Of a stretch of 64,000 nucleotides of DNA, positions 2,912-36,483 are shown piece by piece. The notes below the pieces were generated by a model, which ran no database searches, was not told where the DNA came from, and saw only the letters and a list, made by a program, of their open reading frames with translations. The position numbers and the translations under genes were made by a program. Position 1 is the first letter of the stretch; every line of letters starts with the position of its first letter. Source of the stretch: an uncultured Oscillospiraceae bacterium (GTDB lineage Bacteria; Bacillota; Clostridia; Oscillospirales; Oscillospiraceae); NCBI GenBank assembly GCA_944387145.1, contig CALXDU010000001.1, positions 100 through 64,099 of the forward strand, given 5' to 3'.

Positions 2912-3241
2912 ATGAAGATGATTACCGCAATTATCAATAACAACGACAGCGATGCAGTTTGCAGCGGCCTGCGGGACGGCGGATTCTATTTTACCAAGAT
3001 GAGTACCACCGGCGGTTTCCTGCGCAGCGGCAATACTACGCTTTTGATGGGTACCGAAGATGACCGGGTAGCCCAGGCGCTGGATATTATCCGTGCCAAC
3101 AGCCGCAAACGGACGGTAGAGGCTCCGCTGCCCATGATGCCCAATGGCATGGATCTGGAGATGGGCCTGCCCATGTCCTCAGTAGCGGTCGGCGGCGCCA
3201 CGGTCTTTGTTACCGCCGTTGAACACTTTGAGAAAATGTAA
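2912..3241 (+). CDS. darA: Cyclic-di-AMP receptor, PII-like (DarA/PstA family)
   Basis: 109 aa; MKMITAIIN..D, TKMSTTGGFLRSGNTTLLMG and GGATVFV are family hallmarks; AGGAG RBS. Confidence 0.88.
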   Translation: MKMITAIINNNDSDAVCSGLRDGGFYFTKMSTTGGFLRSGNTTLLMGTEDDRVAQALDIIRANSRKRTVEAPLPMMPNGMDLEMGLPMSSVAVGGATVFVTAVEHFEKM

Positions 3242-3252
3242 GACAAGCAAAT

Positions 3253-3280
3253 CACCCGGCTTTCTTCAGAAAGCCGGGTG
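3253..3280. terminator. Bidirectional intrinsic terminator
   Basis: CACCCGGCTTTCT-TC-AGAAAGCCGGGTG between convergent genes. Confidence 0.75.
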
Positions 3281-3299
3281 AATGATTATTGTAAAGGAA

Positions 3300-3689
3300 T
3301 CAAATCCGTTCAAATCCCAGATACCGGGTACCCTGGAAGCTGAGATTGCCCCGATCACCCTCCACCAGCAGACCGTATTGGTTTCCTTCCAGTTCCAGTT
3401 CCATCCGGTCGCCGCTTGCTACCTGAAAGGTCACATAGTACCGGGTAGAGAAGTGGGTATGATGATTGTCCATGGTGCTGCTGTGCCGCCGGGTTACATC
3501 CGTGCGCTTTGACACAATGGTAGCGGATACCGTCAGCCGGGGGGAAGCGTTGTTTTTGCCACATTGCATAATTCCTTTGATGATGGTAGCCAGTATGATT
3601 CCCAAAATCAGAAGGAAAACGATGGTAAACATCCCAGTAAACAGAGAAAATGAGGAATCAAAGGAATTCATCGAATAACCGAATGTCAT
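3300..3689 (-). CDS. DUF2500-family membrane protein
   Basis: N-terminal TM, KNNASPRLTVSATIVSKR, YYVTFQVASGDRMEL..YGLLVEGDRGNLSFQGTRYLGFER. Confidence 0.85.
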   Translation of the reverse strand: MTFGYSMNSFDSSFSLFTGMFTIVFLLILGIILATIIKGIMQCGKNNASPRLTVSATIVSKRTDVTRRHSSTMDNHHTHFSTRYYVTFQVASGDRMELELEGNQYGLLVEGDRGNLSFQGTRYLGFERI

Positions 3690-3768
3690 AGCATATCCCT
3701 CCTTCAGGTGCGCCTGTTTCTATCTGCATTATACCGTACATTGTACTAAAAAGCTACAAAAATATCGT

Positions 3769-3795
3769 GGCCCGGCGAATATTCTTCGCCGGGCC
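3769..3795 (-). terminator. Intrinsic terminator closing the BlaI/M56 #1 operon
   Basis: GGCCCGGCGAA-TATTC-TTCGCCGGGCC. Confidence 0.65.
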
Positions 3796-3805
3796 GATTG
3801 GGTGA

Positions 3806-3973
3806 TTACTGCACTTTGTACTTTTCCTGCATCAGAATCAGAATCCGCTTCCAGAATACCGATTCTTCGGCGCAGTACATCTGTGCGTGTTCCATTGTGC
3901 TGAAGGAAATGATTCGATTGTCTTCGTCAATCCAGACGGTTTTCATGGGAGCCGATTTGTTTTCCGATGCCAT
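3806..3973 (-). CDS. 55-aa hypothetical protein (not in the ORF track)
   Basis: MASENKSAPMKTVWIDEDNRIISFSTMEHAQMYCAEESVFWKRILILMQEKYKVQ. AAGGTGA RBS; starts 17 nt after the M56 stop and ends just before the terminator. Confidence 0.7.
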   Translation of the reverse strand: MASENKSAPMKTVWIDEDNRIISFSTMEHAQMYCAEESVFWKRILILMQEKYKVQ

Positions 3974-3990
3974 AAAATCACCTTTTCTTT

Positions 3991-6729
3991 CTAGGATTGT
4001 TGCGCCATCCGCTGGGCAATCCAGGCTTGCCGCTCCTCTACAGCGGAAGCAATCTCACTCTCGGGAGTATCTGTGATAATATAATGGGTTGTATAGCCAC
4101 TCCACATGGAATCACAGGATTCCTCCAGAATTTCGGTTAGGTTCCCACTTTCGTCAAAGCGATAGGTGTACAGTCTGGCGGGATTGTCGGCGGCGTTTTG
4201 GGAATAAGAATAAACAAAACGGATTTCCGAATCACTGATCACACTGTATCCTTTCGGGAAGTAAGTGCTGTCATATTCAGAACCAAAAAGATCCAGTGTT
4301 ATCCAGTCATCATACAGGAAATCTCCAGGCGTTGGTGCAAAGCTGTGAGAATAGGCTTCCTGTTTATAGAAATCATTTACAACAGTCTCGCCATATTTCC
4401 AGATCACTTCTGTCATTTTGGGGGTAGAACCATATTTGAAATTGGAGATTTCCCATTTTTCAACCCGGTAATTGCCGCTTTGCAGCTTGGCGATGGCGGC
4501 ATCTACCCGGGCAATGGCATCCTCTCCGCCTTCACCATAGATACCGCCTACCGGATAAATGGCAAATTCAGAATACTGGATGATGGATTCTTCCCCGTTG
4601 TAAAAACGCTTTCCCATCCGATAGACACCGGGCTCCAATTCTCCATAGGTACTTGTCCAGTCCACCTGCCGCATTTCCGTCCGGCTGCGGATGGGAATTT
4701 GTTCCTCGCCAAAACTGGCTTCCGTGGTTTCGCTGACAAGACGTTCCCAGCGGGTGCCCTGCTTTCGTTCCAGCCAGTAGTTTCCATCGGTGTAGTAATT
4801 GGAGACGCCAACCGCATCCGTGGAGAACCATACTTCGCCGCCGGAGGGAGACAGAAGGTCATCATCTACTCTGAAGAAAATTCCCCAAGGCGAGTTGTAC
4901 ATTTCATCAAAAGAATCTGCATAAGTATAGGTTTCTTTGTCATACGGGATGAAAGAAGCGGATGTGCCTTCCTGTTCAACACGATTGATTTTTTTGGATA
5001 CTACAGTTCCGTTTTCATCCACGGTTTCTTCCAGATGTTCAATGGATTTCAGGCTGCCATCTTGGTTGAACAGGAAGGTATCTGTACCCCGATAGGAAGT
5101 TCCAGCATAGTCTGACCACACGGAACGGAATCGGACTTCTTCCTGGCTGATGGTTGATTGCCCCTCAGGGAACAGATAACGACGATTCTGGTCAAGGCGG
5201 AAAGGTGCGTCCCAATTTTTCTCAGCATAAATCGGCATGTCCTGAACGGCGCTGGCGATACAGAATTCACCATAAAGATACTCTACACTGTAATCGGAGT
5301 AGTCTCGAATCAGCCGCATGACCGGAGAAACATTGCCATACAGGTCATACTCAGAGAAAAGCAGGGAGTAATTATCGCTGTTATAAAGTGTATCCAGCGC
5401 AGCGGTGCACCGAGCCAGGGCAGCTTCTTCCTCTGCGGGCAATTCTTCCCGATAAATGTGGAATGCTGTCTGGAATTCAGCAGAGTCCGATACGCTGTCG
5501 ATGGTTACACGAAGCCGGTAATCCCCAGCGGGAAGGGAACCATAGACCAAAGACCAGTCCAGCTCGTCCGTAAAATAGTTTACCAGGTCGTCCCTGCTTT
5601 GCGCAAAGCCAATGCCGCTGGTATTCAGGACAATGGCACTTTGGGCTTTGCTTGGCATCGGCTCCCAGGCATTTCCATTCCATCGGTCGATGGTAACGTC
5701 ATGCATTTTCATTTCCCCGGAAGCCGCAGCAAAACGCTCTTCTACTTTATAAACCAGAGTGCCGCTGGAGGGAGAAGTCATATCCATGAAAATGTCCACG
5801 CCCCAATCCGGGTTGGGTTCTACCTCCGGCAGTACAGGGGGAGTAAAAATGGCGGGATCTTCCTTGCTGTTTTCCTCAAGCTGCTCCTGAGGATCCACAT
5901 ACACCTGCTCGGTTTCCTTGGGGCTGGTTACCAGACACAGCGCCACAAAACAGATGGCCAGCACACCCAGCAAACTGATCCAGAAGCTGGGCTTGCGGTA
6001 GTTCAGCACGGACTTAATGCGGTATTTCACACTGACTTCACCGAAGGCAACGGGGCAGGCGGCATAGTGCACCTGCTTGGTGCTGCATTTGAGCAGGGCG
6101 GCCGAGTAGGCCTTCCGTTCCTCCAGTTCCATGAACTGAACTACCCGCTCATCGCAGGCCATTTCAATGTCCTTGCATAGCAGAATATAACTGACCCAGA
6201 CCAGGGGATTGAACCAGTGCAGCGTCAGCGCCAGAAATCCGATCATTTTGATCCAGTGATCGCCCTTGTCTAAATGGGTGCGCTCGTGGGCCAGAATCTG
6301 CTCCCGGGTATTTCCGGACATGCCAGTGGGGATGTAAATCTTGGGCTTGATAAAGCCCAGCACAAAGGCGGTATCAATCCGGTCAGACTCCCATCCGCCG
6401 GGAACCTGCACCGCATCCTGCACTTTTTTGCGCAGATGCAGATAGGACCAGAAGCTGTAAACGGCGATGGCCACCGCCACTGCCACCCATACAAAGGGCA
6501 GCGCTTTGGACAGGTTCAAAGAAATGGGAAGGGTGATGCTTTTCGGCTGCAGGCTGAATCCGCTCTGTACGGGAATGGGCATCAGCAGCCGCAATCCAGC
6601 CAGCACCCACAGAAAGCAGATGAATTTTTTCGGTGTTTTCCGCAGCACCAGCCGCAGCAGCAGAACCGCCAGAATGACGATGCTGCCATGAAAGCTGGCG
6701 GTCAGCACATTCTGAAAAAAGGCAGTCAT
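3991..6729 (-). CDS. M56 (BlaR1/MecR1-like) membrane metalloprotease sensor #1 with duplicated extracellular module
   Basis: N-terminal TMs, HERTH zinc motif, HWFNPLVW, DIEMACDE. The C-terminal region holds two similar units with DW..YG.L..G.YR. No SxxK penicillin-binding domain seen. Confidence 0.9.
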   Translation of the reverse strand: MTAFFQNVLTASFHGSIVILAVLLLRLVLRKTPKKFICFLWVLAGLRLLMPIPVQSGFSLQPKSITLPISLNLSKALPFVWVAVAVAIAVYSFWSYLHLRKKVQDAVQVPGGWESDRIDTAFVLGFIKPKIYIPTGMSGNTREQILAHERTHLDKGDHWIKMIGFLALTLHWFNPLVWVSYILLCKDIEMACDERVVQFMELEERKAYSAALLKCSTKQVHYAACPVAFGEVSVKYRIKSVLNYRKPSFWISLLGVLAICFVALCLVTSPKETEQVYVDPQEQLEENSKEDPAIFTPPVLPEVEPNPDWGVDIFMDMTSPSSGTLVYKVEERFAAASGEMKMHDVTIDRWNGNAWEPMPSKAQSAIVLNTSGIGFAQSRDDLVNYFTDELDWSLVYGSLPAGDYRLRVTIDSVSDSAEFQTAFHIYREELPAEEEAALARCTAALDTLYNSDNYSLLFSEYDLYGNVSPVMRLIRDYSDYSVEYLYGEFCIASAVQDMPIYAEKNWDAPFRLDQNRRYLFPEGQSTISQEEVRFRSVWSDYAGTSYRGTDTFLFNQDGSLKSIEHLEETVDENGTVVSKKINRVEQEGTSASFIPYDKETYTYADSFDEMYNSPWGIFFRVDDDLLSPSGGEVWFSTDAVGVSNYYTDGNYWLERKQGTRWERLVSETTEASFGEEQIPIRSRTEMRQVDWTSTYGELEPGVYRMGKRFYNGEESIIQYSEFAIYPVGGIYGEGGEDAIARVDAAIAKLQSGNYRVEKWEISNFKYGSTPKMTEVIWKYGETVVNDFYKQEAYSHSFAPTPGDFLYDDWITLDLFGSEYDSTYFPKGYSVISDSEIRFVYSYSQNAADNPARLYTYRFDESGNLTEILEESCDSMWSGYTTHYIITDTPESEIASAVEERQAWIAQRMAQQS

Positions 6730-6732
6730 AGT

Positions 6733-7095
6733 TTATTCCTCCTGATAGCTGTCAATCAGCGCCTGCAGCTGGTTAACGTCCTCTTGGGATAGTTTCTTGC
6801 TCCGGGAGAAGGCGGCAATAAAGGCGGGGATAGAGCCTTCAAAGGTCTCTTCCACCATCTCTTCCAATCGGGACTTCTGGGCATCCGCTTTGGAAACCAG
6901 GGTGCTGACCATGGTGTTTTCGTTCTTGACTACACCCCGCTCCGACAGACGGCGGATAACAGTGTAGGTGGTGGCTTTGGACCAGCCCAGCTGCTCTTTA
7001 CACAGAGCCACCAGTTTGGTGGAATTGATGGGTTCATTTTCCCAAAGCAACAGGCAGAAACGGTACTCGCTTTCAAAGATTTTTGGGGTTTTCAT
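6733..7095 (-). CDS. BlaI/MecI/CopY-family repressor #1
   Basis: ESEYRFCLLLWENEP, WSKATTYTVIRRLSERG, FEGSIPAFIAAF; AAAGGAGG RBS before ATG at 7095. Confidence 0.93.
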   Translation of the reverse strand: MKTPKIFESEYRFCLLLWENEPINSTKLVALCKEQLGWSKATTYTVIRRLSERGVVKNENTMVSTLVSKADAQKSRLEEMVEETFEGSIPAFIAAFSRSKKLSQEDVNQLQALIDSYQEE

Positions 7096-7117
7096 TTTGC
7101 TGCCTCCTTTTGGTATA

Positions 7118-7990
7118 TCAGTACCGGGGACTGAAATCGTGTACGGGTTCACCGTCGCGGGTGATGTTTACACAGCCGTATACCCGGATTTCCAATCCCG
7201 GGTATTCTTCGGTACCCAGATTGCGGAACGTGTTGCCGTCAATGTTGACATCCTCGCAATTCGTAAATTCCACACCGCCGACGCTGCAATCGTAGATGTC
7301 ATTGCTGACAATCTGCATATTCTTGCTGCTGTCGCCGATTACGCCCAGAGTACCGCAGCCGAACAAGCCGCAGTCCTGAACCAGAACTTCCTGGCAGTTC
7401 AGAAACCGCAAAACACCGCCAGCACAGTATCCAGGTTCTTCCGCATGACCTGCGGTAAATCCGGTAACCATAATATTGGAGCAGTTTTCAAAGTTCAGAA
7501 CATTTGCGTAGCGGGGAACTGCGGAAATTACATTGTCATCGTGGCTTTCCCCGCCGCCGCGGATGGTCAGATTGGACAGGTTTGTGATATACAGCGCCGG
7601 CCCGTCAAACTCTTCAAACCAATAATAGGTATCGGTGCTTTTGACGCCGTAGCCGACGGAGGTGCTCAGGTCGATCATCTCTGCATCCAGAATGATTTCT
7701 GTATCCGAAGCGAGGGCCGCCAGGAATTCATCGGCGGTCTTGACATGTACCTGGGTTTGCTCTCCGGTAATCACCGGGGTAATTTCGGGCTCGTAGACAG
7801 CTGCAGCCTCAGTGGCGGCTTCGGCAGCGGGGAGCGTGGTCTCCGGGGCAGTAGTGGTTTCGGGGACGGTGGTTTGGGTGACGGCCTCTGTGGAGGCAAC
7901 CGGTTCTGTGGTGGAAGCGCTGGGAGCGCAGCCTGCCAGCATCGTAAGTACCAGGCAACCTGCGGCGATGAAGGATACTGTCTTTTTCAT
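7118..7990 (-). CDS. Lipoprotein with right-handed parallel beta-helix (pectin-lyase-like) domain
   Basis: Signal peptide with lipobox LAGC, T/E/A-rich linker, repeated FENCSNI / FLNCQEV / FTNCEDVNIDGNTF strands. Confidence 0.78.
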   Translation of the reverse strand: MKKTVSFIAAGCLVLTMLAGCAPSASTTEPVASTEAVTQTTVPETTTAPETTLPAAEAATEAAAVYEPEITPVITGEQTQVHVKTADEFLAALASDTEIILDAEMIDLSTSVGYGVKSTDTYYWFEEFDGPALYITNLSNLTIRGGGESHDDNVISAVPRYANVLNFENCSNIMVTGFTAGHAEEPGYCAGGVLRFLNCQEVLVQDCGLFGCGTLGVIGDSSKNMQIVSNDIYDCSVGGVEFTNCEDVNIDGNTFRNLGTEEYPGLEIRVYGCVNITRDGEPVHDFSPRY

Positions 7991-8049
7991 AAGGGAAACT
8001 TCCTTTCCATATCGTTTGTGAAGGGGGATGGTGGATGAATTACAGAATT

Positions 8050-8107
8050 GGTTTAATGCATTGAACCTTTGCAAGATAAGTTTAACATATTAAACTTATC
8101 TTGTCAA
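8050..8107 (-). promoter_or_regulatory. sigmaA promoter with two palindromic operators
   Basis: Minus-strand TTGACA-17-TAAACT with TG extension. Perfect 14-bp inverted repeat CAAGATAAGTTTAA-CATA-TTAAACTTATCTTG (8072-8103) plus a second copy of its core, GGTTTAA-TGCA-TTGAACC (8050-8067). Confidence 0.75.
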
Positions 8108-8240
8108 TCATTGTTTTATTTTTCTCTTTCTTCGCATATTTTGGTGACAGGGCAGCATCAATCCCAAGAAATTTTCCCCAAACCGATGACAAGCGTTTTT
8201 TTTTGTTGTATAATACCGAAAAACGACTAGGAGGAATCCA

Positions 8241-8654
8241 ATGCGCATCATGGGAATTGACTACGGCGATGCACGCACAGGTGTGGCGATTTCCGACCTG
8301 CTGTGTACGCTGGTGGGGTCTGCTAAAGTTGTACCCAGCCGCAATACAGACAAAGCCATAGCCGATATTGTAAAAATTGCAGAAGAAAACCAGATAGGGG
8401 AGATCGTGGTAGGACTTCCCAAGAATATGGACGGCACCGAAGGCAGCCGGGCACAGCTGTGCCGGGAATTTGCGGACAGACTGGGGCAGGCCACCGGATT
8501 GCCTGTGGTGATGTGGGACGAGCGAAGAACCACGGTAGAAGCCCACAATATCCTGTCTCAGCACAATTACCACGGAAAGAAGCGCAAAGACACGGTGGAT
8601 GCCGTTGCTGCGTCCTTGATTCTGGAAGGATATTTGAACTTCAAAAATCGATAA
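8241..8654 (+). CDS. ruvX: YqgF/RuvX-family nuclease (pre-16S rRNA processing / resolvase-like)
   Basis: GIDYG, VVGLP, DERRTT and VDAVAASLIL motifs. Confidence 0.93.
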   Translation: MRIMGIDYGDARTGVAISDLLCTLVGSAKVVPSRNTDKAIADIVKIAEENQIGEIVVGLPKNMDGTEGSRAQLCREFADRLGQATGLPVVMWDERRTTVEAHNILSQHNYHGKKRKDTVDAVAASLILEGYLNFKNR

Positions 8655-8708
8655 ATTTTATGGGCCTGCCTACATCCCAATTCAGGGGACATGGGCAGGC
8701 CCGTTTTG

Positions 8709-9083
8709 TTAAGATGCCTTTTTCTGACGAAAGAAGATTTCCTTTATTCCTACAACAATCAACAGCACACCGAATGCCTTTTGAATCCACTTCAGATCCC
8801 AGCCGGCGCTGATCCTGGAAAACAGCACACAGGTAATGATACCGCCGAGAATGGCAGGAATCACAATTTTCCAGCAAATATGCTTTTGACGAACCCGGAG
8901 CAGACAGGAAAGAAATGCAGCAGGAAGAAAAAACAGCAGATTGATCTGTCTGGCAACGGCGTAGTCCGTATTTGCCACCAGTGTCAGCCAAAGAATCAGC
9001 AAACTCCCGCCGCCCACACCAATTCCGGAGAAAAAGCCCAAGACTGCGGTAACCAGCACGATAACCGGAAAACTCTCTAACAT
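8709..9083 (-). CDS. Half-size TauE/SafE-family membrane protein (second half)
   Basis: MLESFPVIVLV..GFFSGIGVGGGSLLI..QINLLFFLPAA; ATG overlaps the upstream partner's stop. The 339-aa track ORF is over-extended through the tRNA. Confidence 0.78.
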   Translation of the reverse strand: MLESFPVIVLVTAVLGFFSGIGVGGGSLLILWLTLVANTDYAVARQINLLFFLPAAFLSCLLRVRQKHICWKIVIPAILGGIITCVLFSRISAGWDLKWIQKAFGVLLIVVGIKEIFFRQKKAS

Positions 9084-9433
9084 AAATACCGAATTCCTCC
9101 CCATAAAACGAATGCACCCAGAATCCGGTGAAGCCAAAGCACCGGTATTTTGCTGCCCCAAAAGCCTGCAGCCAGACCGCCCATGGCACTTCCGACCAGA
9201 TAGGGCAGGACTTGCTTTATCTCCAAGCTGATACCTGGCGCAAAAATAAGGGTAACAACGCACAATGTCAGTGTTACACAGATGGAGCAGGGGAATATTT
9301 CTTCCTCTTTCGCAGATGTCAGCAGCCCCAGAAGCGGTACCAGTACCATCCCGCCGCCGGTGCCAAACAATCCGGTGACAATTCCGGCACAGATTCCGGC
9401 CAAAACTGCCCCCCAATATTGGTGATGAATCAT
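9077..9433 (-). CDS. Half-size TauE/SafE-family membrane protein (first half)
   Basis: AGIVTGLFGTGGGMVLVP motif, about 4 TM; GGAGG RBS before ATG at 9433. Confidence 0.8.
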   Translation of the reverse strand: MIHHQYWGAVLAGICAGIVTGLFGTGGGMVLVPLLGLLTSAKEEEIFPCSICVTLTLCVVTLIFAPGISLEIKQVLPYLVGSAMGGLAAGFWGSKIPVLWLHRILGAFVLWGGIRYLC

Positions 9434-9547
9434 AAAGATAGCCTCCATATTCAGTTTTTCCACCGAAAGCGTTCTTATCCACGATTTTCCAGATTACTGA
9501 AAATTCAAGTGGCCCGCAAGACAAAATGGAAAAAGTAATTTTTAAGG

Positions 9548-9576
9548 TTGACATTTGAAATAGAAATGAGTATAAT
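9548..9576 (+). promoter_or_regulatory. Consensus sigmaA promoter for tRNA-Pro
   Basis: TTGACA-17-TATAAT, 11 nt upstream of the tRNA. Confidence 0.88.
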
Positions 9577-9587
9577 ATACTGGATTT

Positions 9588-9664
9588 CGGGGTGTGGCGA
9601 AGCTTGGTATCGCGCTTGGTTCGGGTCCAAGAGGCCTCGGGTTCGAATCCCGACACTCCGACCA
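9588..9664 (+). tRNA. tRNA-Pro (anticodon CGG)
   Basis: Acceptor stem CGGGGTG/CACTCCG, anticodon arm CTTGG-TTCGGGT-CCAAG, T-loop GGTTCGAATCC, encoded CCA. Confidence 0.97.
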
Positions 9665-9669
9665 TAATT

Positions 9670-9714
9670 GCAGCCGGTTTTACAGCGAAAGTGTTGTAAA
9701 ACCGGTTGCTTTTT
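9670..9714 (+). terminator. Intrinsic terminator after tRNA-Pro
   Basis: GCAGCCGGTTTTACAGC..GTTGTAAAACCGGTTGC followed by a T-run. Confidence 0.82.
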
Positions 9715-9861
9715 GCTTTTGACCACAATGCAGCCTAGCGGCTTGTTGTTGGTAAGCGCAATAGAAAGACCAGGAAAATCTTTTGCTCGTTGTGACCAAA
9801 TTGGATTATCTTCTGTCTATATCAGTGAAGGAGCCTTATCAATAAGAGAAAGGGGATACCC

Positions 9862-10422
9862 ATGGACGACCAACAGATCATAGAACTTTATTGGAATCGG
9901 TCGGAGTCTGCCATTACAGAAACTGCGGCTCGCTACGGTAGGTTTTGCTACCACATTGCTTACCGCATTCTGGCAAATCGGGAAGACAGCGACGAGTGCG
10001 TCAATGATACATATTTTCGGGTGTGGGAAGTGATTCCACCCACCCGGCCTAACCTTTTTTCTGCCTTTCTGGGGAAGATTACCCGAAACCTAGCCTTAAA
10101 TCGGTACGCTTTCCAGACAGCGGAGAAACGTGGCGGCAGTCAGATACCCTTAGCCTTAGAAGAGTTAGGCGATTGCATCCCGGGCGGGAGAGCACCAGAA
10201 CAGGTAGCCCAGGACAGGGAATTGGCGGAGGCCTTGAATCGATTTCTGAGAGAACTTTCTGCTGAAAATCGGAAAATCTTTTTACAGCGTTACTGGAATC
10301 TAATGCCGGTAAAGGACATCGCTATAACTTATGGCATATCCCAAAGTAATGTGAAAATGTCTCTGATGCGTACACGAAAGAGATTAAGAAATTTTCTGGA
10401 AAGGGAGGGAATCTGGGTATGA
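9862..10422 (+). CDS. ECF-type sigma factor (#2), paralogue of #1
   Basis: MDDQQIIELYWNRSESAI, DSDECVNDTY, FLGKITRNLA, FLQRYWNLMPVKDIA. Confidence 0.92.
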   Translation: MDDQQIIELYWNRSESAITETAARYGRFCYHIAYRILANREDSDECVNDTYFRVWEVIPPTRPNLFSAFLGKITRNLALNRYAFQTAEKRGGSQIPLALEELGDCIPGGRAPEQVAQDRELAEALNRFLRELSAENRKIFLQRYWNLMPVKDIAITYGISQSNVKMSLMRTRKRLRNFLEREGIWV

Positions 10423-11507
10423 AGGAAGAACGTCTTTTGACGGTTCTGGGAATGATCGACGATACCTTTGTGGAAGAGTTATATAGATCCGAAGAAGAAC
10501 GACCTTCCAACCCGGTTTCCAAGCGAAAAATCCGAGTCTATTTCCTCGTTGCTGCGATTATCCTGCTTTTGGCTGCCTGTGGAGTTAAAGCAGTTGCGAT
10601 TTTGGAGGAAAATTGGTTTCCCCAGTATTTTTCTGAAAAGTATAGAGACGATGCCGAAGAGATGATTTCAGAAAATCAAAGGGAACTGCTTGAACAAGGC
10701 TTGGTTCCCATCGGGCAGAGCGTCACCTGCAATGGGTATACCCTGACCCTGGAATCTGCACTCAGCGATGGCTACCGATCTTTCCTGAAATTTCGGCTTA
10801 CGGCACCGGAAGGAGTTGATTTGGATGGGGCGCGGTACAATCTGGAAGGCTTATCCCAAATTACCCATGCTGATGGAAAAGAAATTGAGTTTTCTATGGA
10901 AGGCGGGGACGAGTATTCCTTACCGGATCGGAAGGATCCTGACAACACGGTTGCCATCTTATATGAATCCTCTGTTGTCCCGCAGACAGACAGCGCAGAA
11001 AAAATGAAATTGGGAACCGTTTGGAACATAACCATAACCAACGTTTATGAATATGCCATTCGGGAGGATAATGCAGAGCAATATTATGATCTTCGTAAAG
11101 AGATTTCCGGAGAATGGTCCTTCCACTTTACCTTTGATGAAAATACCCTCCTTGGGCAGGAACAGGAAATTCTGGAAGACCCTATTTATTGCCTGGGCAA
11201 ACGTATCCTGTGGGAACGCAGTTTTCCGGTTATTGTAAAAATTACCTCGTACAAAATTCGTGCGTTTGGCGCAACGCTGCGTTTTGAAATGCCTCTGCTG
11301 GGGGTCTGGGAAGGAGTGGAACACGGCCCGGTTTTCATCTTCCTCAAGGACGGTACGGTGGTAGAAGGACATTTTCGGGCAGGATTCAATCGTGGGGATT
11401 ACTGGGAAAATAACTATGAATTCCCCATTCCCATTACGCCGGAGGACATTTCCTATGTTCAGTTTCCAGGCGGGCTGAAAGTTTTTCTAACCGATGAGGA
11501 AAAATAG
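10419..11507 (+). CDS. Putative anti-sigma factor (DUF4179-like extracellular domain)
   Basis: ATGA overlap with the sigma gene; LLTVLGMIDDTFVEE N-terminus, single TM, GQSVTCNGYTLTLESALSDG. Confidence 0.75.
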   Translation: MKEERLLTVLGMIDDTFVEELYRSEEERPSNPVSKRKIRVYFLVAAIILLLAACGVKAVAILEENWFPQYFSEKYRDDAEEMISENQRELLEQGLVPIGQSVTCNGYTLTLESALSDGYRSFLKFRLTAPEGVDLDGARYNLEGLSQITHADGKEIEFSMEGGDEYSLPDRKDPDNTVAILYESSVVPQTDSAEKMKLGTVWNITITNVYEYAIREDNAEQYYDLRKEISGEWSFHFTFDENTLLGQEQEILEDPIYCLGKRILWERSFPVIVKITSYKIRAFGATLRFEMPLLGVWEGVEHGPVFIFLKDGTVVEGHFRAGFNRGDYWENNYEFPIPITPEDISYVQFPGGLKVFLTDEEK

Positions 11508-11696
11508 CTTGTGCTTCCGACTACCCCAAGGTTCCTGTAGGTGCCAAATTCGAACGGAAGGAGAAAAATCAGCAGTTACACATCCGTTTTGATCGAAATG
11601 TTAACTTCAATCGTGTATAATAAAAATAAAAGCAGTAGTGCATTGTTTGAAATATTTTTCTTGTAATTTCCCCACAAAAGTGAAGGAGTGTGTTCA

Positions 11697-12059
11697 ATGA
11701 GAACAAGAATATCGATATATTTGCTATCATTACTTGGTGTAGTTAGTTTGCTTTCCATCCTTATTGGAACGCAGCACATTTCTGCGGTTGAAGAAAAATA
11801 TGATAGTCTAGCAATGAGCAAGATTGAGGAGCTTATCTCTGCCAATGGAGAGGATTTCTACGCTTATATGGACCTGGATCAGGCTCAAGAGGAACTCAAA
11901 CCTGTTATCTTAGAGGCACGGAGAAGAATCATTTTTGATTCTTCTTGGGTTTCAGATGAGATTAATGGACGAATTCTGGATGAGGATGGGAATGTAATCG
12001 AAGAAGTTCCGCATTTTTCTGAGGTATTTCCCGAGGATTGGGAGCTTCCTTCGGTGTGA
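11697..12059 (+). CDS. Hypothetical exported / membrane-anchored protein
   Basis: AAGGAG RBS; hydrophobic N-terminus; acidic C-terminal ILEARRRIIFDSSW..VPHFSEVFPEDW. Confidence 0.7.
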   Translation: MRTRISIYLLSLLGVVSLLSILIGTQHISAVEEKYDSLAMSKIEELISANGEDFYAYMDLDQAQEELKPVILEARRRIIFDSSWVSDEINGRILDEDGNVIEEVPHFSEVFPEDWELPSV

Positions 12060-12132
12060 CCACGAATGCCATGTCAAAGGATGATTTCCCAAACTGCCGA
12101 AATCCCTATGAATAACTGCAAATAGCCATTTT

Positions 12133-12172
12133 GGCCGGAAGCGGAGAGATTCTGCTTCCGGCTGATGTTTTT
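12133..12172 (+). terminator. Intrinsic terminator
   Basis: GGCCGGAAGCGGA-GAGAT-TCTGCTTCCGGCT followed by a T-rich tract. Confidence 0.65.
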
Positions 12173-12184
12173 TGGAAAAAGAGG

Positions 12185-12235
12185 TTGACAATCCTGTCTA
12201 CTGATAGTAGAATATAATTGTCTACTAGCAGTAGA
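12185..12235 (+). promoter_or_regulatory. sigmaA promoter with two BlaI-type operators
   Basis: TTGACA-17-TAGAAT; TCTACT-GAT-AGTAGA (12197-12211) and TCTACT-AGC-AGTAGA (12221-12235), 24 bp apart. Confidence 0.8.
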
Positions 12236-12253
12236 ATAAAGGAGGTGCAGAAA

Positions 12254-12613
12254 ATGCCTGAATACAAATTGGGGGAGATTGAATCCCTGTTTGCTGATAT
12301 TATATGGAGCAATGAGCCCCTTAGTTCCCGTCAGCTGGCAGAACTTGCGGAAAAATCCCTGCAATGGAAGCGTACTACAACCTACACCATTTTGAAACGG
12401 CTTTGCGACCGGGGACTGTTTCAAAATCAAGGCGGCACGGTAACATCCTGCGTCAGCCGCCAGGAATTTTACGCCCGGCAAAGCGAGAAGTTTGTTGACG
12501 ATACCTTCGGCGGCTCTCTTCCGGCTTTCCTTGCCGCTTTCGGCAGCTGCAAGAAGCTGTCCCAGTCCGAAATTGACGAAGCCCAGAAGCTGATTGACGC
12601 TATGCGGGGGTGA
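12254..12613 (+). CDS. BlaI/MecI/CopY-family repressor #2
   Basis: ESLFADIIWSNEP, WKRTTTYTILKRLCDRG, FGGSLPAFLAAF; GGAGG RBS. Confidence 0.93.
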   Translation: MPEYKLGEIESLFADIIWSNEPLSSRQLAELAEKSLQWKRTTTYTILKRLCDRGLFQNQGGTVTSCVSRQEFYARQSEKFVDDTFGGSLPAFLAAFGSCKKLSQSEIDEAQKLIDAMRG

Positions 12614-12617
12614 GAAT

Positions 12618-15011
12618 ATGGAAACCGTATTTTCTCAGGTTTTGAACATGAGTCTTACCGGCAGTGCGGTGATTCTGGTGGTAATTCTTGCCCGGCTGCT
12701 TCTGAAGCGCTTTCCCAAGATTTTTTCCTATACCTTATGGGCAGTGGTGCTGTTTCGGCTGCTGTGCCCGGTGTCTGTGAGCGCTTCCTTGTCCATGCTG
12801 GACTGGTTTCAGCCAGAGGTAACCACCGTTTCGGAAAGAACCAGCGCCGTGTCCTATCTTCCGGTGCGCTATGTGTATACCAGTGAAAAGGATAACCTGC
12901 CGCAGCCAACGCCCCCGCAGGAGACAGACACCCATCCTTCCCAAGAGAAAACCAGCCCATCCGTATCCGTTATGACCGTAGCGGCGTATCTCTGGGCGGC
13001 GGGGGTATTCTTGATGGTGCTGCGCAGTGTTATCCAGTACCTGAGCCTTCGCCGGAAACTGGTAAGCGCCATTGTGTACCGTGGGGAAGTGTATCTGGCG
13101 GATTACATTGATACCCCCTTTGCCTTGGGTATCCTGCGTCCCCGGATTTATCTTCCATTCCAAATTCCCGAAGAGGAACGGCGTTATATCATTGCCCATG
13201 AGCGCCACCATATCCGCCGGGGCGATCATGTGATGAAACTTCTGGCTTACGGCGCACTTTGTATCCACTGGTTTAACCCGTTGGTCTGGACAGCCTTCCT
13301 TCTGGCGGGAAAAGACATGGAAATGAGCTGTGATGAAGCGGTAATTCGCAAACTGGGAGAACATATCCGGGCGGATTATTCTGCCACGCTTCTGCGCATG
13401 GCTACACATAAGCACACCATCGCAGCTTCGCCCCTGGCCTTTGGCGAGGGAGATACGAAAGGACGGATTCAAAATATGGCACATTGGAAAAAGCCTAAAC
13501 TTTGGGTCAGTGTCTTGTGTCTGGCGCTTTGTATCGCTGTGTTTGCTGCCTGTGCGGTGAATCCTGCAAAGGAAGAAAGTAACCCACCGGCAGCTGTAAG
13601 TGAGATTCCCAGCACGCCGGAGACGACAGCCCCAACCCAGCCGTCGGTAGAAGAAACACAGCCGACCTATCAATCCGAATTTACCAACCGTGACGGCAGA
13701 GTCTTCTTCCACATCGATGCCCCCATGCCCCAGGAGATTGAAGAAGGTGTGATTCTGGAAGCCGTACCCCACTATCTGACAGAGGAAGATGTGAAGCGGG
13801 CTGCTTACGCCATCTTCGGAGAGGACGCTTATTTTACGGAAGCGCCCCCGCAGTTTGAACTCTACACCGAAACCCGGGAGCAGCTGGAAGCCGCTATTGA
13901 GCGGATGAAGCCGTACACCACCCCGGAAGCCTGGGAGTATCTTATGGGATCGAAGGAAGCTGCGGACCAGGAACTGGAAAAACAGATTCTGGAAGAGAAT
14001 GCTGCCATGACATCTGAACTGATAGTGTCTTATCAGAAAAGCCTGGATAACTTCCGCCTAGATTTTCCGGAGGAACCCTGTAAATGGACTTGGAAGAAAG
14101 ATGCGTATTATTGTTATGCACCGGAACACGTTAGTGAGAGGGAGCTTGCCGGGCGTAATGATTCCATTCGAGCCTTTGTAGAGGCAGATGGAGTCTCATA
14201 TGAATTCAATGCGTCTACCAGAGATGAAGAAGACTTCAAAATCAACATTATTAGCGCCTGGCCCAGTTGGCCTGCGGGATGGTTTGAAGTGGACGACAAA
14301 CTCCTGCGCCGCAATCTGTGTGAAGAGGAGCCGACCCAGGAGCAGATTGCCCAAGCCTGTGCGGAAGCAGAACGCATTCTGAAGGATATGCAGTTGGGGC
14401 AGTGGCAGATTTCTGATGCCTATGTGGAGCTGAATACCTACACCAATACCGACATAATATTGTACGAAATCTGCATCCAGGCAGTTCCGGTATTGGAAGG
14501 CGGCGCTGATGTTAGAAGAGGACAGCATGGGAATATCAACCAGGCCTCTGAAGATCCGGCGCCGGATAATTACTACCTGACCCGGGCAGAATTCCAGTTT
14601 GCCCCCAATGGGGAATTGTTCGGATTGGATTTTCGGTCTCCCATGGATACCACGGTGGTCAGCAGGACCAATGCAGTCTACTCGGTGGCGGATTTGCTGA
14701 AGTTGGCGGAAGAAACCCTGAAAAATGCTGACATCAATGGCTACGGATGGGATGTAGATGAAATGGAGTACGAGGAGGCTAAATGCGATGTGATCATTTC
14801 GGACATTCAAACCGGAATGGCCCGAGTCCGGGTGGAGGGAACAGAGGATACCTATCAATATGTTCCGGTGCTGTCGCTGATTGGCACGTGTACCTATACG
14901 TTGGATGGCGGCTACCAGAGGGAGTCGGGATATGGCAAACCACAAAATATCCTCACCATCAATGCCCTTGACGGCAGCATCATCGACAACCCGGGAGCGC
15001 CGGAAGCCTGA
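12618..15011 (+). CDS. M56 (BlaR1-like) membrane metalloprotease sensor #2 with unrecognised extracellular domain
   Basis: HERHH, HWFNPLVW, DMEMSCDE; TM then an acidic domain of about 450 aa unrelated to that of M56 #1; no SxxK domain seen. Confidence 0.9.
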   Translation: METVFSQVLNMSLTGSAVILVVILARLLLKRFPKIFSYTLWAVVLFRLLCPVSVSASLSMLDWFQPEVTTVSERTSAVSYLPVRYVYTSEKDNLPQPTPPQETDTHPSQEKTSPSVSVMTVAAYLWAAGVFLMVLRSVIQYLSLRRKLVSAIVYRGEVYLADYIDTPFALGILRPRIYLPFQIPEEERRYIIAHERHHIRRGDHVMKLLAYGALCIHWFNPLVWTAFLLAGKDMEMSCDEAVIRKLGEHIRADYSATLLRMATHKHTIAASPLAFGEGDTKGRIQNMAHWKKPKLWVSVLCLALCIAVFAACAVNPAKEESNPPAAVSEIPSTPETTAPTQPSVEETQPTYQSEFTNRDGRVFFHIDAPMPQEIEEGVILEAVPHYLTEEDVKRAAYAIFGEDAYFTEAPPQFELYTETREQLEAAIERMKPYTTPEAWEYLMGSKEAADQELEKQILEENAAMTSELIVSYQKSLDNFRLDFPEEPCKWTWKKDAYYCYAPEHVSERELAGRNDSIRAFVEADGVSYEFNASTRDEEDFKINIISAWPSWPAGWFEVDDKLLRRNLCEEEPTQEQIAQACAEAERILKDMQLGQWQISDAYVELNTYTNTDIILYEICIQAVPVLEGGADVRRGQHGNINQASEDPAPDNYYLTRAEFQFAPNGELFGLDFRSPMDTTVVSRTNAVYSVADLLKLAEETLKNADINGYGWDVDEMEYEEAKCDVIISDIQTGMARVRVEGTEDTYQYVPVLSLIGTCTYTLDGGYQRESGYGKPQNILTINALDGSIIDNPGAPEA

Positions 15012-33775: not shown

Positions 33776-34059
33776 TGGAAAACGAGAATCCAAATCTGCC
33801 TGAGGTTCCGGAAATGGACCTTTATGAGCGGGAAGAACAGTGCAGCCGTGCATTAAAGCAGGTGGCAAAGGCCTGTGTGATGCGAATCGTCGTGACAGGA
33901 CTGCTGCTGTTTGTGCTGCTTTGCGAACAACGGGCATTGTGGTTTTGGGGCCTGCTGGGCCTTGTGATGCTGCTGAACCTGGCGGGGCTGCTTCCTCTGC
34001 TCGGGGAGGTAAAACGGCGGCTGCAAGAGCTGAAGCAGCTGCGCAGTATGGAAGACTGA
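33772..34059 (+). CDS. Small two-TM hypothetical protein
   Basis: Overlaps the trpS stop; two hydrophobic segments; followed by a terminator. Confidence 0.65.
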   Translation: MMENENPNLPEVPEMDLYEREEQCSRALKQVAKACVMRIVVTGLLLFVLLCEQRALWFWGLLGLVMLLNLAGLLPLLGEVKRRLQELKQLRSMED

Positions 34060-34075
34060 TATTGTGTTTTGATTT

Positions 34076-34108
34076 CCCACGGAAAGCGAGGATTCTGCTT
34101 TCCGTGGG
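34076..34108 (+). terminator. Intrinsic terminator
   Basis: CCCACGGAAAGCGAG-GAT-TCTGCTTTCCGTGGG. Confidence 0.7.
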
Positions 34109-34133
34109 AAATTTTTTGAAATTCTGCAATCCA

Positions 34134-34160
34134 TGAAAGTTTTCGTCCGGCAAAATCGTA
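34134..34160 (+). promoter_or_regulatory. Candidate autoregulatory ECF promoter
   Basis: TGAAAG-17-CGTA, resembling the Bacillus sigW/sigX/sigV-type TGAAAC..CGTA. Confidence 0.5.
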
Positions 34161-34194
34161 TCCTGATTGAAGGCGCCTCGAAGGAGTTGAACCA

Positions 34195-34674
34195 ATGGAT
34201 ATCACACAACAAGCGGAGCGATTGGCGAAGGACTATTCCGATGCCATTCTCCGACTTAGCTACACCTATCTGAAAAGTACTGATGATGCTCAGGATATTT
34301 GCCAAACCGTGTTTGTCAAACTGCTGACCCAGCCGATGGAGTTTGACTCGCCGGAGCATGAACGAGCCTATGTTCTGCGGATGGCATCCAATGCCTGTAA
34401 AGACTTGCTGAAGAGTCCCTGGCGAAAACGAAAATGCAGCCTGGATGCCTGTATGGAGATACCGGCTCCCGAAGCAAAGGACGGTTCTGTGTTGGAAGCG
34501 GTCAATCGGCTGCCCACAGCTTACCGAACTGTGATCTACCTGTTTTACTACGAAGGCTATCAGGCGTCGGAGATTGGACAAATTCTTGGGATTCCCACGG
34601 CAACCGTGCACACACGATTGGCAAGAGGTCGGGAAAAGCTGAAACCTTATTTGGAGGAGTATGGATATGCATAA
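34195..34674 (+). CDS. ECF sigma factor (#3, SigV-like)
   Basis: YSDAILRLSYTYLKSTDDAQDICQTVFVKL, YRTVIYLFYYEGY..SEIG, TVHTRLARGR. Confidence 0.92.
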   Translation: MDITQQAERLAKDYSDAILRLSYTYLKSTDDAQDICQTVFVKLLTQPMEFDSPEHERAYVLRMASNACKDLLKSPWRKRKCSLDACMEIPAPEAKDGSVLEAVNRLPTAYRTVIYLFYYEGYQASEIGQILGIPTATVHTRLARGREKLKPYLEEYGYA

Positions 34675-35728
34675 CATGAAAGACTATCAAGATTTCTATA
34701 ATCATCTGTCCTATACTACGGAGCAGAAGGCACATATTGCCGCCAAGGCCGCTGCTGCAGCAGTCCGGAGAAAGCCGGAGCGTAAATGGATGTACCTGAG
34801 TAAAATTGCGGTAGCCGCAGCCTGCTTGGTTTGCTTGCTGACGGTTACGGCGGAGGCGGCAGGCATTCCCACACCGCTGTCAGAGCTTCTGGCTCCCATC
34901 TTCGGCGGAAGCGTTGCCCAAACAGAAGTGATTGATAAAATTGGCCATCCGATTGGGGCTTCTGATACAGACAACGGTATTACCATTCAGGCAGATGCCG
35001 TGATCGGGGATGAATATAATATCTGCATGGTTTATACCATCCGCCGGGATGATGGGACACCCTTGCTGCCGGAAGGTGTGACGGCGAATCATCTGCTGTC
35101 AGGAGCATTTGACCGCACGTCTTACGGTAAAGGCGGGCATGGTATGTCTTATTTTGTGGACACAGTTCCGGGAGATGCGGAGATCCAGTATGTCACGGTA
35201 TTCAGTTCTGACGAACCGGTGAATCAGGGAAAGGTTACAGCCCAATTCCATGACCTTTTCTGTTATGATGATACCGCAAAGGAGAGATTTCCTGTTTTAG
35301 AGGGAAGTTGGAAATTCCGCTTTGACATTGCCTATGAGGATGCTTCCGTCCATTTGGGTGGCGGAGAGACCTTTTCTCAGGATGGACTGAATTTTACCAT
35401 CACAGAAATTCGCCTTTCCCCTCTGGCAGTCAGCGTTGCCTATGAAGCGGATTCTCAGGTGCAGTGGAGCAATGCGGAAAACGGAAAACAGCCCGAAGAA
35501 GACGAACGTGAATGGGAACGTTATCAGGAAAACATTGCGGTGTTTTTGACCAAGAAAGATGGTACGGTTCTGGACTTGACTGTCTCCGGCGGTTCCTTAG
35601 CAGCTGAGGAGGGAAAAACCATCGGCGTGAAAGGAATGGTTTTTGACCAGATTGTTCCTTTGGAGGATATGGAAAGCCTTACGGTTGGAGGCGTTACCTT
35701 CCCCATCGGAGACAACAGTAATGCATAA
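34661..35728 (+). CDS. Putative anti-sigma factor (DUF4179-like)
   Basis: Overlaps the sigma gene; single TM; IGASDTDNGITIQADAVIGD; GSWKFRF. Confidence 0.78.
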   Translation: MDMHNMKDYQDFYNHLSYTTEQKAHIAAKAAAAAVRRKPERKWMYLSKIAVAAACLVCLLTVTAEAAGIPTPLSELLAPIFGGSVAQTEVIDKIGHPIGASDTDNGITIQADAVIGDEYNICMVYTIRRDDGTPLLPEGVTANHLLSGAFDRTSYGKGGHGMSYFVDTVPGDAEIQYVTVFSSDEPVNQGKVTAQFHDLFCYDDTAKERFPVLEGSWKFRFDIAYEDASVHLGGGETFSQDGLNFTITEIRLSPLAVSVAYEADSQVQWSNAENGKQPEEDEREWERYQENIAVFLTKKDGTVLDLTVSGGSLAAEEGKTIGVKGMVFDQIVPLEDMESLTVGGVTFPIGDNSNA

Positions 35729-35736
35729 GCAGAAAA

Positions 35737-35762
35737 GTGGAGGCGACAGCAGTCGCCTCCAC
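35737..35762. terminator. Bidirectional terminator
   Basis: GTGGAGGCGAC-AGCA-GTCGCCTCCAC. Confidence 0.78.
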
Positions 35763-35766
35763 AAAT

Positions 35767-36432
35767 TTATGATTGGTCAGAAGAATTGGCCAGACTTGCG
35801 TAATCCGGCATGGCATATCCACGGATGTGCATGTCATTCAGGAGAACATACCGGTAGCCTACGGCATCGTCTTTGTTCCCTTCGATTACTTTCACGAAAG
35901 GCCATTTGGTACCCACCACAATGCCCACATGGTCAGACCAGCCTGTGCAGTCGCCAAAGCCCTTTGCATCCCAGTCGTAAAAAATCAAATCTCCCGGCAG
36001 GGGAACGGCAGCGTCATCTTCTTCCCAGCGGCCGATTTCCTGAAATAGACCAATGTGACGTTCACAGCCGCATTCGGTGGGAATGATGTCTGTCAAACCG
36101 CATTCAATCGCCATGGCGCTGACAAAGGTGGAGCACCAGCTGTCCGTGTCCTGTACTACATATCCCACAGCCAGCGGTTCGTGGTTGTTGTAGATGTTCA
36201 AAATGGCTTTGTGACTGCCATCGGCTTCGTTATAGCCCAGATACTGCTCCGCTGTTTCCACCAGCTGCAGCCGAAGGGCTTCTTCCTGGGGGGAAACTTT
36301 CCAGTAAAATCCCCAGTCAGAGAAGAGATAATGACGTACGATCGCTGCAGCCATCAGCAAACATACGGCGGCAGCAGCGATTCGCTTTTTCAATCCTTGC
36401 TTTTCTTTTGTTATCACTGGGCAACCTCCCAC
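35767..36432 (-). CDS. Membrane-anchored CHAP-domain peptidoglycan hydrolase
   Basis: N-terminal TM, WCSTFVS (Cys), PGDLIFYDW, DHVGIV (His), IEGN; start uncertain. Confidence 0.85.
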   Translation of the reverse strand: MGGCPVITKEKQGLKKRIAAAAVCLLMAAAIVRHYLFSDWGFYWKVSPQEEALRLQLVETAEQYLGYNEADGSHKAILNIYNNHEPLAVGYVVQDTDSWCSTFVSAMAIECGLTDIIPTECGCERHIGLFQEIGRWEEDDAAVPLPGDLIFYDWDAKGFGDCTGWSDHVGIVVGTKWPFVKVIEGNKDDAVGYRYVLLNDMHIRGYAMPDYASLANSSDQS

Positions 36433-36483
36433 TGTAGATTGCCCACCATTATATCAGTTCATTCGACGCAAAGCAACGTATTT

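Follow-up and report, generated by a model that had tools for sequence, protein, structure and literature searches.

A conserved BlaI/BlaR-type operon of gut Oscillospiraceae with a beta-helix lipoprotein gene between its predicted operators and its repressor gene

Switches of the BlaI/BlaR type are usually taught as antibiotic-resistance devices. In the BlaI/BlaR1 and MecI/MecR1 pairs known from Staphylococcus aureus and Bacillus licheniformis, the repressor is a winged-helix protein of the Penicillinase_R family and is encoded beside an M56 zinc protease with an HExxH motif, and two dyads over the promoter of the pair itself make the system autoregulatory; the regulated proteins BlaZ and BlaP are lipoproteins, and the sensor domain of BlaR1 is related to beta-lactamases. 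Here, we describe an operon on the minus strand of a stretch of 64,000 nt of DNA from an uncultured Oscillospiraceae bacterium (contig CALXDU010000001.1; hereafter, the window) that has the same repressor, protease and paired dyads and shares with BlaI/BlaR1 a lipoprotein-anchored surface protein as its putative regulated product and a kinship between sensor domains and an effector-type protein. Unlike the classical pairs, it has no penicillin-binding sensor, beta-lactamase or penicillin-binding protein (PBP); its predicted operators read GTTTAAT-N2-ATTAAAC, not TACA/TGTA; the presumed regulated gene precedes blaI within the operon itself; the sensor has an ectodomain of ~630 aa, made of duplicated Ig-like and alpha/beta domains; and the aligned cleavage position of the repressor is A-F, not N-F.

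A parallel of another kind is offered by the RsgI/SigI systems of Clostridium thermocellum, anti-sigma/sigma polysaccharide sensors whose ligands are known plant polysaccharides. There too, a membrane sensor carries exchangeable carbohydrate-type extracellular domains, regulated proteolysis releases the transcription response and many paralogues exist, but the operon of the window encodes a repressor and an M56 protease and the two kinds of system share no homology. BlaIR systems without a beta-lactam sensor are already known as a kind. CenIR of Clostridioides difficile is a BlaIR-family pair whose sensor has no transpeptidase domain and whose strongest target is the adjacent exported protein (PMC13492132, J Bacteriol 2026); according to the same paper, M56 proteins are encoded near a BlaI in 96% of cases and carry a transpeptidase domain in only ~6%, the ectodomain of CenR is short and largely unstructured, the target CDR_0474, encoded downstream, is 136 aa long and specific to C. 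difficile, and the regulon comprises ~12 genes, including a peptidoglycan hydrolase. Our operon likewise comes from the class Clostridia and places an M56 protein without a transpeptidase domain beside a BlaI-like repressor, which makes it a non-canonical BlaIR system; measured against the paper's description, it differs in its structured ectodomain, in a predicted regulon consisting of the module and a twin pair, and in its product, a beta-helix lipoprotein of a type common to sister sensors. The repressors BlaI_0696 and BlaI_1845 of C. thermocellum (PMC8457756) come from a genome with several BlaI/BlaR pairs, each having its own inverted repeat, with two dyads per promoter (four protomers) and very small, self-contained regulons whose operons include hypothetical proteins; binding to half-sites GTCTAT and GACTAT was established by DNA affinity purification sequencing (DAP-seq) and electrophoretic mobility shift assays (EMSA). 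Multiple pairs per genome, separate dyads, two per promoter, and tiny regulons are features that we find again, whereas the half-sites differ, binding at our locus is predicted from its architecture and no beta-helix partner is described for the C. thermocellum pairs.

Our analyses lead to the conclusion that the operon is a self-contained module of three to five genes that travels among gut Oscillospiraceae. We have high confidence that, as regards regulation, the module follows the usual BlaI/BlaR logic, albeit with an operator and a sensor that are new. The best explanation of the whole, to which we give about an even chance, is an autorepressed proteolytic switch of the BlaI/BlaR type that responds to a non-beta-lactam cue and has the lipoprotein as its output. 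A literature search found no description of a beta-helix partner for any M56 or BlaI system. Apparently new are the operator family, an ectodomain of duplicated Ig and alpha/beta units, a lipoprotein gene that regularly follows the operators, a domain that shuttles between sensor and lipoprotein, and a twin sensor with shared DNA specificity. With a defined operator, one promoter and its twin, and a single candidate output, the module is small, conserved and amenable to experiment, and it comes from anaerobes that are abundant in the gut.

A first-pass annotation, made from the letters of the window, had proposed a promoter with two copies of a palindrome, one over the -10 region and one downstream, followed by four genes and a terminator. 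All of these parts are present, at or near the positions assigned to them there, and the whole unit runs on the minus strand from 8107 to 3769:

8102..8107, minus strand: -35 hexamer TTGACA, kept as TTGACA in all related loci.
8079..8084, minus strand: -10 hexamer TAAACT with a TG upstream, forming the right half of O1; TAAACT is kept in 14 loci.
8072..8103, both strands: predicted operator O1, a perfect 14+4+14 palindrome that fills the -35/-10 spacer and overlaps the -10 hexamer.
8050..8067, both strands: predicted operator O2, GGTTTAATGCATTGAACC, a palindrome with 11-nt arms, 91% complementary with one mismatch.
7118..7990, minus strand: gene for the beta-helix lipoprotein, 290 aa (Pfam Beta_helix, lipobox, structure model).
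6733..7095, minus strand: blaI, 120 aa, coordinates including the stop codon (Penicillinase_R).
3991..6729, minus strand: gene for the M56 sensor-protease, 912 aa (Peptidase_M56 and Big_14).
3806..3973, minus strand: small open reading frame (ORF), 55 aa, the conserved but optional last gene of the module.
3769..3795, minus strand: intrinsic terminator-like hairpin, an 11-bp stem with 9 GC pairs and then a T-rich tail.

The promoter, with TTGACA, a 17-nt spacer that includes the TG, and TAAACT, matches the consensus at 10 of 12 positions. The core of O1, GTTTAA-N4-TTAAAC, lies at 8080-8095 and is extended to the full 14+4+14 palindrome in the module lineage; O2 lies over the predicted transcript start (~+5 to +22), 29 bp from O1 centre to centre, and has the family consensus (A/G)TTTAATGCATTAAA(C/T). 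Both belong to one dyad type with the core TTTAAT-N2-ATTAAA, in agreement with the earlier claim that the operator is not TACA-NN-TGTA, and the pattern GTTTAANNNNTTRAAC has three strand matches in the window, against 0.04 expected from shuffles. The genes follow one another closely, with gaps of 22 nt between lipoprotein gene and blaI, 3 nt between blaI and the M56 gene, and 17 nt before the 55-aa ORF. A separate promoter for blaI had been named in the first-pass annotation as one of two observations that would speak against its operon; ahead of the blaI start codon (ATG at 7095, with AGGAGG before it), no promoter-like site was found at the locus. The lipoprotein gene, placed between the operators and blaI, should therefore be co-regulated. 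An influence of the palindrome on the divergent ruvX gene, suggested there as well, is not borne out: the promoter-like site of ruvX (8186-8214, plus strand) begins 83 bp past O1, and the neighbour on that side differs in each related locus with listed flanks.

What the first-pass annotation missed is that the module is conserved and that the genome contains a second blaI-blaR pair with the same operator type. More than 17 loci in Oscillospiraceae genomes and metagenomes show the order lipoprotein-BlaI-M56 together with this promoter and its two dyads, and their flanking genes differ; the order is present in 15 of 18 genome loci, from metagenome-assembled genomes of human, goat, chicken and other guts. 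Approached from the lipoprotein, loci L025, L027 and L028 (57-65% identity) show Beta_helix, Penicillinase_R and M56 plus Big_14 among quite different neighbours; approached from BlaR, all three homologues at ~50% identity have a lipoprotein and a BlaI upstream. The consensus of 14 loci is TTGACA-N6-GTTTAAT-NTG-TTAAACT-N10/11-(A/G)TTTAATGCATTAAA(C/T)C, with which further loci agree, and as a negative control, six loci that encode a homologous beta-helix protein without a BlaI contain no such site. Because position and sequence of the dyads are kept in the more than 17 related loci and are missing from these six, the two dyads are very probably BlaI operators; paired dyads over the promoter of the repressor's own operon, here at the -10 hexamer and at the predicted transcript start, are also a feature of the BlaI family. 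The last gene is less constant: homologues of the 55-aa ORF (43-95% identity) hold the same position in seven other loci and are missing from at least eight. The ORF matched no family, and neither a signal peptide nor a membrane segment is evident in its sequence.

This conservation bears on the possibility that the gene for the lipoprotein was inserted as a mere passenger downstream of a BlaI-controlled promoter and ahead of blaI, in a switch that controls something else or nothing. Of the five BlaI/BlaR loci of the genome, only the studied one has a gene between the dyads and blaI, the other four being plain two-gene units, and at two loci discussed below, the twin on contig C10 and L079, the same promoter stands directly ahead of blaI. 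Such an insertion is hard to square with an arrangement that is kept at 50-65% protein identity, in many genera and between different flanks, with operators that always lie upstream of the lipoprotein gene and with a beta-helix domain that is repeatedly tied to M56 proteins, and we consider it the least probable of all the explanations weighed here, and very improbable in itself.

The assignment of the repressor is straightforward: the protein scores 74.9 bits against the Penicillinase_R winged-helix family (PF03965, E 8.7e-21, cut-off 22.6), and the MecI structures 1sd6 (E 8e-7) and 1okr (E 1.5e-6) match it over aa 2-114. Its recognition helix is WSKATTYTVIRRL, and loci that share a BlaI recognition helix share the operator type as well. 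In MecI, the segment VLNF contains the N101/F102 cleavage site; the segment that aligns with it in our BlaI is IAAF, within PAFIAAF, and PAF(I/L)AAF is kept in all five BlaI paralogues of the genome.

The sensor-protease matches Peptidase_M56 (PF05569, E 2.6e-38) and Big_14, and its HExxH motif is an intact HERTH; H148, E149 and H152, together with many other M56 residues, are invariant in 50 homologues. The view that this is a BlaI/BlaR-type operon with neither a beta-lactamase nor an SxxK domain is confirmed. The NCBIfam model blaR1_generic reaches 61 bits, where the cut-off is 400, and its match is confined to aa 114-268; Pfam and NCBIfam searches of the M56 protein give no match to the transpeptidase/penicillin-binding domain (PF00905); and neither the operon nor the genes that follow operator sites elsewhere in the genome include one for a beta-lactamase or a low-affinity PBP. 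Profile and single-sequence searches of the PDB with the M56 part matched no BlaR1 structure, and membership in the family therefore rests on Pfam and NCBIfam. The AlphaFold2 model has a mean predicted local distance difference test (pLDDT) score of 72, mostly 80-95 in the ectodomain, and contains four membrane helices; the ectodomain (aa ~285-912) is modelled as two repeats of an Ig-like Big_14 sandwich plus an alpha/beta domain, in which a long helix packs on an antiparallel sheet, and then a C-terminal helix. The duplication is seen in profile comparisons as well, both for the Ig-like domains (Ig1 vs Ig2, 96% probability, E 3e-9) and for the alpha/beta pair (97%, E 4e-11). The alpha/beta domain matched no Pfam family; Foldseek, run with the whole model, returned mostly meaningless multi-Ig matches, and the sole local match, to LolA (8cgm, E 9e-4, TMt 0.40), does not suffice to give the domain a name. 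The ~300 homologue clusters of the ectodomain, from Oscillospiraceae, Clostridiales and Candidatus Faecousia, are at most named 'M56 family metallopeptidase'.

The lipoprotein has its true start at ATG 7990 (MKKTVSFIAAGCLVLTMLAGC) and a lipobox, LAGC, whose Cys21 is invariant in 66 homologues. After the signal peptide come a disordered stalk of ~50 aa, rich in T, P, E and A, and a right-handed beta-helix of ~8 coils (aa 72-290), which matches Pfam Beta_helix (2e-6) and is modelled by AlphaFold2 as a short right-handed beta-helix with pLDDT >90 over most of aa 70-290. The fold proposed in the first-pass annotation, that of pectin lyases, stands insofar as AlphaFold2, Foldseek and Pfam agree on a right-handed beta-helix, but no catalytic signature of polysaccharide lyases (PL) or glycoside hydrolases (GH) comes with it, and 'pectin-lyase-fold' names the fold of the lipoprotein, not its function. 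The Foldseek search suggested there does return PL-type and tailspike beta-helices (RbmB, pectate lyases, PL6 and fucoidan lyase at probability 0.96-1.0, and also a putative glycosidase and tailspikes), but the matches are generic, with template modelling (TM) scores of 0.3-0.5 and 8-15% identity. A profile search of the PDB gave a best E of 0.11, no CAZy-type Pfam family matched, and searches of PDB, BFVD (with Foldseek), PHROGs and PADLOC brought up beta-helix matches of a generic kind only, with no defence-system protein among them. A phage as the signal, one of the cues proposed earlier, finds no support in PADLOC, where nothing relevant matched, or in PHROGs, with only weak repeat matches. 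More than 350 homologue clusters exist, all unnamed and ~285 aa long.

Invariant in the family are W124, D129, G130, P159, R160, C170, H182, C189, G211-C212-G213, Y233 and C235. Among these, C189, C212 and C235 are spaced 23 residues apart, which is one coil, and lie in turns between strands; on the model, they probably form a structural ladder. The conserved loop 179-193, with H182 and E185, is the best candidate for a functional site. The same residues could be taken differently, as the site at which the beta-helix binds a metal or reactive sulfur species in an envelope metal response of the CopY/PetR kind rather than a glycan: H182 and the cysteines C170, C189, C212 and C235 are invariant across the superfamily, Pfam gives a weak match to NosD (E 9e-4) that is stronger in relatives, the BlaI matches the CopY family model (TIGR02698, E 2e-12), and copper-responsive M56/BlaI systems are in the literature (PetR/PetP). 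Yet three of the cysteines, one coil apart in turns, look more like the ladder than like a site, the BlaI sequence does not have the C-terminal CxC metal motif of CopY, and no gene for a metal transporter or chaperone was present in any of the loci whose genes were listed. We regard a metal or thiol sensor as improbable.

The reach of the predicted operator was assessed with a position matrix built from 20 sites of other loci, with the window's own sites left out, and scanned over the 2.02-Mb genome to which the window belongs. The highest scores were obtained by two sites on contig C10 (30.8 and 24.7 bits), followed by O1 (24.6), O2 (23.8) and a site within a gene on contig C6 (20.1); no further site scored above 14.0 bits. 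The C6 site was also the single extra one in an exact-pattern scan of the same genome. It reads GTTTAATTTGTTAAAC (L004 5822-5837, C6:15822-15837), lies within a 790-aa coding frame in a low-GC stretch that resembles a mobile element, and as a further promoter target is discarded as probably a chance match. The genome scan proposed in the first-pass annotation, done both by exact pattern and by matrix, leaves the window operon and the C10 twin as the only promoter targets, and besides the regulators, only the lipoprotein gene and the 55-aa ORF lie behind this operator type in the genome. The regulon appears limited to the module and the twin blaI-blaR pair. The extra sites in related genomes were those of twin blaI-blaR loci, a LacI-type operator upstream of a gene resembling glycosidases, or single AT-rich matches, and the operator search of seven family genomes with more distant beta-helix homologues gave no site pairs.

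The five BlaI/BlaR pairs of the genome place these operators in a wider series. Two pairs lie in the window and the others on contigs C10, C7 (~1-2330) and C47 (7266-10330); the second pair of the window (12254-15011) has dyads TCTACT-N3-AGTAGA at 12197-12211 and 12221-12235, and carries DUF6034. All five loci share one layout, with TTGACA, a dyad reaching into the -10 region, a second dyad, a ribosome-binding site (RBS) and the first gene, while the half-site differs per locus and the ectodomains are all different. Across the paralogues, a change of dyad type goes together with a change of recognition helix: TCTACA/TCTACT dyads pair with WKRTTTYT(V/I)LKRL, a TCTAAT-like dyad with WSKTTTYTVIKRL, and the GTTTAAT dyad with the helix of the studied BlaI. 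The operator core TACA-N-TGTA is not found at the studied locus, and two other paralogues of the genome use TCTACA/TCTACT. Five BlaI paralogues with dyads of their own in one 2-Mb genome are a natural collection, if a small one, in which the DNA-recognition code of the family can be studied.

At the C10 twin, the operators (C10:33974-34019) stand directly ahead of blaI (34038-34400), which is followed by blaR (34403-37270); there is no lipoprotein gene. Compared with the proteins of the studied operon, the twin BlaI is 76% identical, with no difference in the recognition helix, and identity is 66% in the M56 domain and only ~25% in the ectodomain, which is built from the same domain types. The ectodomain of the twin was found in this genome only among 201 sampled, and comparable lipoprotein-less twins exist in two further genomes that bear the module (G201:C9, L078; G206:C92, L071). 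Given the shared helix and operators, cross-binding of both repressors at both promoters is likely.

The beta-helix family extends well beyond lipoproteins. A profile of the lipoprotein family, searched against 1.84 billion cluster representatives, yielded 2740 clusters at E <=1e-3, of which 589 reached E <=1e-30. Among the 148 best representatives, 48 are M56 proteins that carry one to five copies of the beta-helix as their C-terminal extracellular part, and the other 100 are free proteins, mostly with two domains and 500-600 aa, of which 67 have a lipobox-like motif. One free two-domain paralogue is encoded on contig C5 of our genome, in an uninformative context. In the fusions P0250, P0258, P0262 and P0291, the M56 domain is 48-60% identical to that of the window and the beta-helix copy 45-48% identical to the lipoprotein, and the family-invariant residues are retained equally in free and fused copies. 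At the one fusion locus that was examined, that of P0250 (L079), we found the same promoter and dyads (GTTTACTGTGTTAAAC and GTTTAATCGATTAAAC) and the same BlaI recognition helix, and neither a separate lipoprotein gene nor any other candidate output gene. The arrangement at the studied locus, lipoprotein-blaI-blaR with an Ig/alpha-beta ectodomain, may be called architecture A; architecture B is blaI-blaR with a beta-helix ectodomain, and architecture C, that of the twin, blaI-blaR with a rearranged Ig/alpha-beta ectodomain. The three therefore represent one regulatory lineage of M56 domain, BlaI and operators.

Since the same beta-helix family serves as the extracellular domain of sister BlaR proteins, the lipoprotein may belong to the sensing apparatus. 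In its explicit form, this would make the lipoprotein the detachable, ligand-binding half of a split sensor, which docks on the Ig-like/alpha-beta ectodomain of the M56 protein and triggers BlaI cleavage, architecture B being the fused form. The pattern of fusions is of the Rosetta-stone kind, involving about a third of the top representatives (48/148) and including the same M56 subfamily and operators; the invariant residues are equal in free and fused copies; the lipoprotein accompanies this type of BlaR ectodomain at nearly every locus examined, from whichever side the search is started; and architecture B does without an output gene. On the other hand, a split sensor would leave the genome with no non-regulatory output except the optional 55-aa ORF, and a receptor subunit encoded as the first gene under its own repression would be unusual. 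The lipoprotein and the ectodomain are also unrelated in sequence (hhalign probability 0.5%), which implies no homotypic docking; by the same comparison, the idea that the lipoprotein is a copy of this M56 ectodomain was rejected for the studied locus. We consider the split sensor a serious but rather unlikely possibility.

We favour the lipoprotein as the output of the switch, at about even chance, because otherwise a switch without any output in the genome must be assumed. The lipoproteins BlaZ and BlaP, and the exported protein encoded beside CenIR, are precedents for such an output. According to this explanation, drawn from the architecture and from what is known of the family, BlaI dimers would sit on both GTTTAAT-N2-ATTAAAC dyads, at the -10 hexamer and the transcript start, and block RNA polymerase. 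On detection of an extracellular, non-beta-lactam cue by the M56 ectodomain, the cytoplasmic HExxH zinc protease would cut BlaI, probably within PAFIAAF, and the operon would be derepressed. Its only clearly non-regulatory product would then be displayed on the outside of the membrane as a beta-helix lipoprotein on its stalk of ~50 residues. The beta-helix most likely binds, and perhaps cleaves, the molecule to which the system responds, because the sister BlaR proteins of the same M56/BlaI/operator lineage carry the same domain as their sensor. Judged from the fold, a glycan polymer would be the likeliest class of ligand; this is the weakest step of the explanation. Whether output or sensor, the beta-helix domain should bind the relevant ligand, and the use of one domain as sensor and as regulated product in sister systems gives a handle on that ligand: what the beta-helix binds is probably the signal.

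Several observations weigh against the lipoprotein as the output of a one-signal switch. Its best structural matches are as generic as stated above, and neither sequence nor fold searches found a recognisable catalytic signature of any PL or GH family. Architecture B, in which no separate output gene accompanies the pair, weakens the explanation, as it shows that the lineage includes switches with no effector gene next to them. The module is rare and patchy, being present in one of the 201 sampled family genomes and missing from both congeneric ones. Finally, since the BlaI of the C10 twin shares the recognition helix, a second sensor may be needed to control the promoter, and the picture of a single signal may be wrong. 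The view of the first-pass annotation that the lipoprotein is the apparent effector thus becomes one of two competing readings: the gene is indeed the first of the operon and the only one that is clearly non-regulatory, but the same domain is the ectodomain of many sister BlaR proteins. A bolder combination of these findings would be a two-input proteolytic gate, in which a split sensor (BlaR1 plus lipoprotein) and the C10 twin feed BlaIs of the same specificity onto one promoter and control surface display. We hold this to be more doubtful than the split sensor by itself, and well above the metal sensor in plausibility; if true, convergent sensors and a separate ligand-binding partner would be seen here for the first time in a BlaR-type system.

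The surroundings and relatives of the module show some further features. In the window, further genes for envelope sensing lie around it: at 945-2768, one for an anti-sigma-like protein that has M15 peptidase and SH3 domains, and at 9862-11507, those for an ECF sigma factor with a DUF4179 anti-sigma. The neighbourhood of L025 is partly alike, with an M15 peptidase gene upstream (3199-4803) and ECF sigma genes downstream (10163-12258). Eight relatives have, between O2 and the lipoprotein gene, a micro-ORF of 23-29 aa that is absent from the window; it is hydrophobic, has the consensus MxFSPLxTLLAAMVISLLAxxGIR and a strong GGAGG RBS, and is found at L025 5887-5976, at L028 5870-5941 and in L032-L037, ~80-160 nt past the -35 hexamer. 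L028 deviates in two more respects: the spacer between lipoprotein gene and blaI has a 195-nt insert (6853-7046) rich in hairpin-forming repeats, and the M56 gene (7413-10108) is called as two ORFs of 443 and 436 aa. At L058 (~1500-1560, G207:C55), the full promoter and both dyads are followed only by a membrane ORF of 153 aa, similar to the N-terminus of an M56 protein, and this locus may be a decayed module. At L052, a second BlaI/M56(Big_14) pair (1-2750) is divergent from the lipoprotein operon and has TACA-type dyads of its own in the common 213-bp spacer; the two systems therefore keep separate operators.

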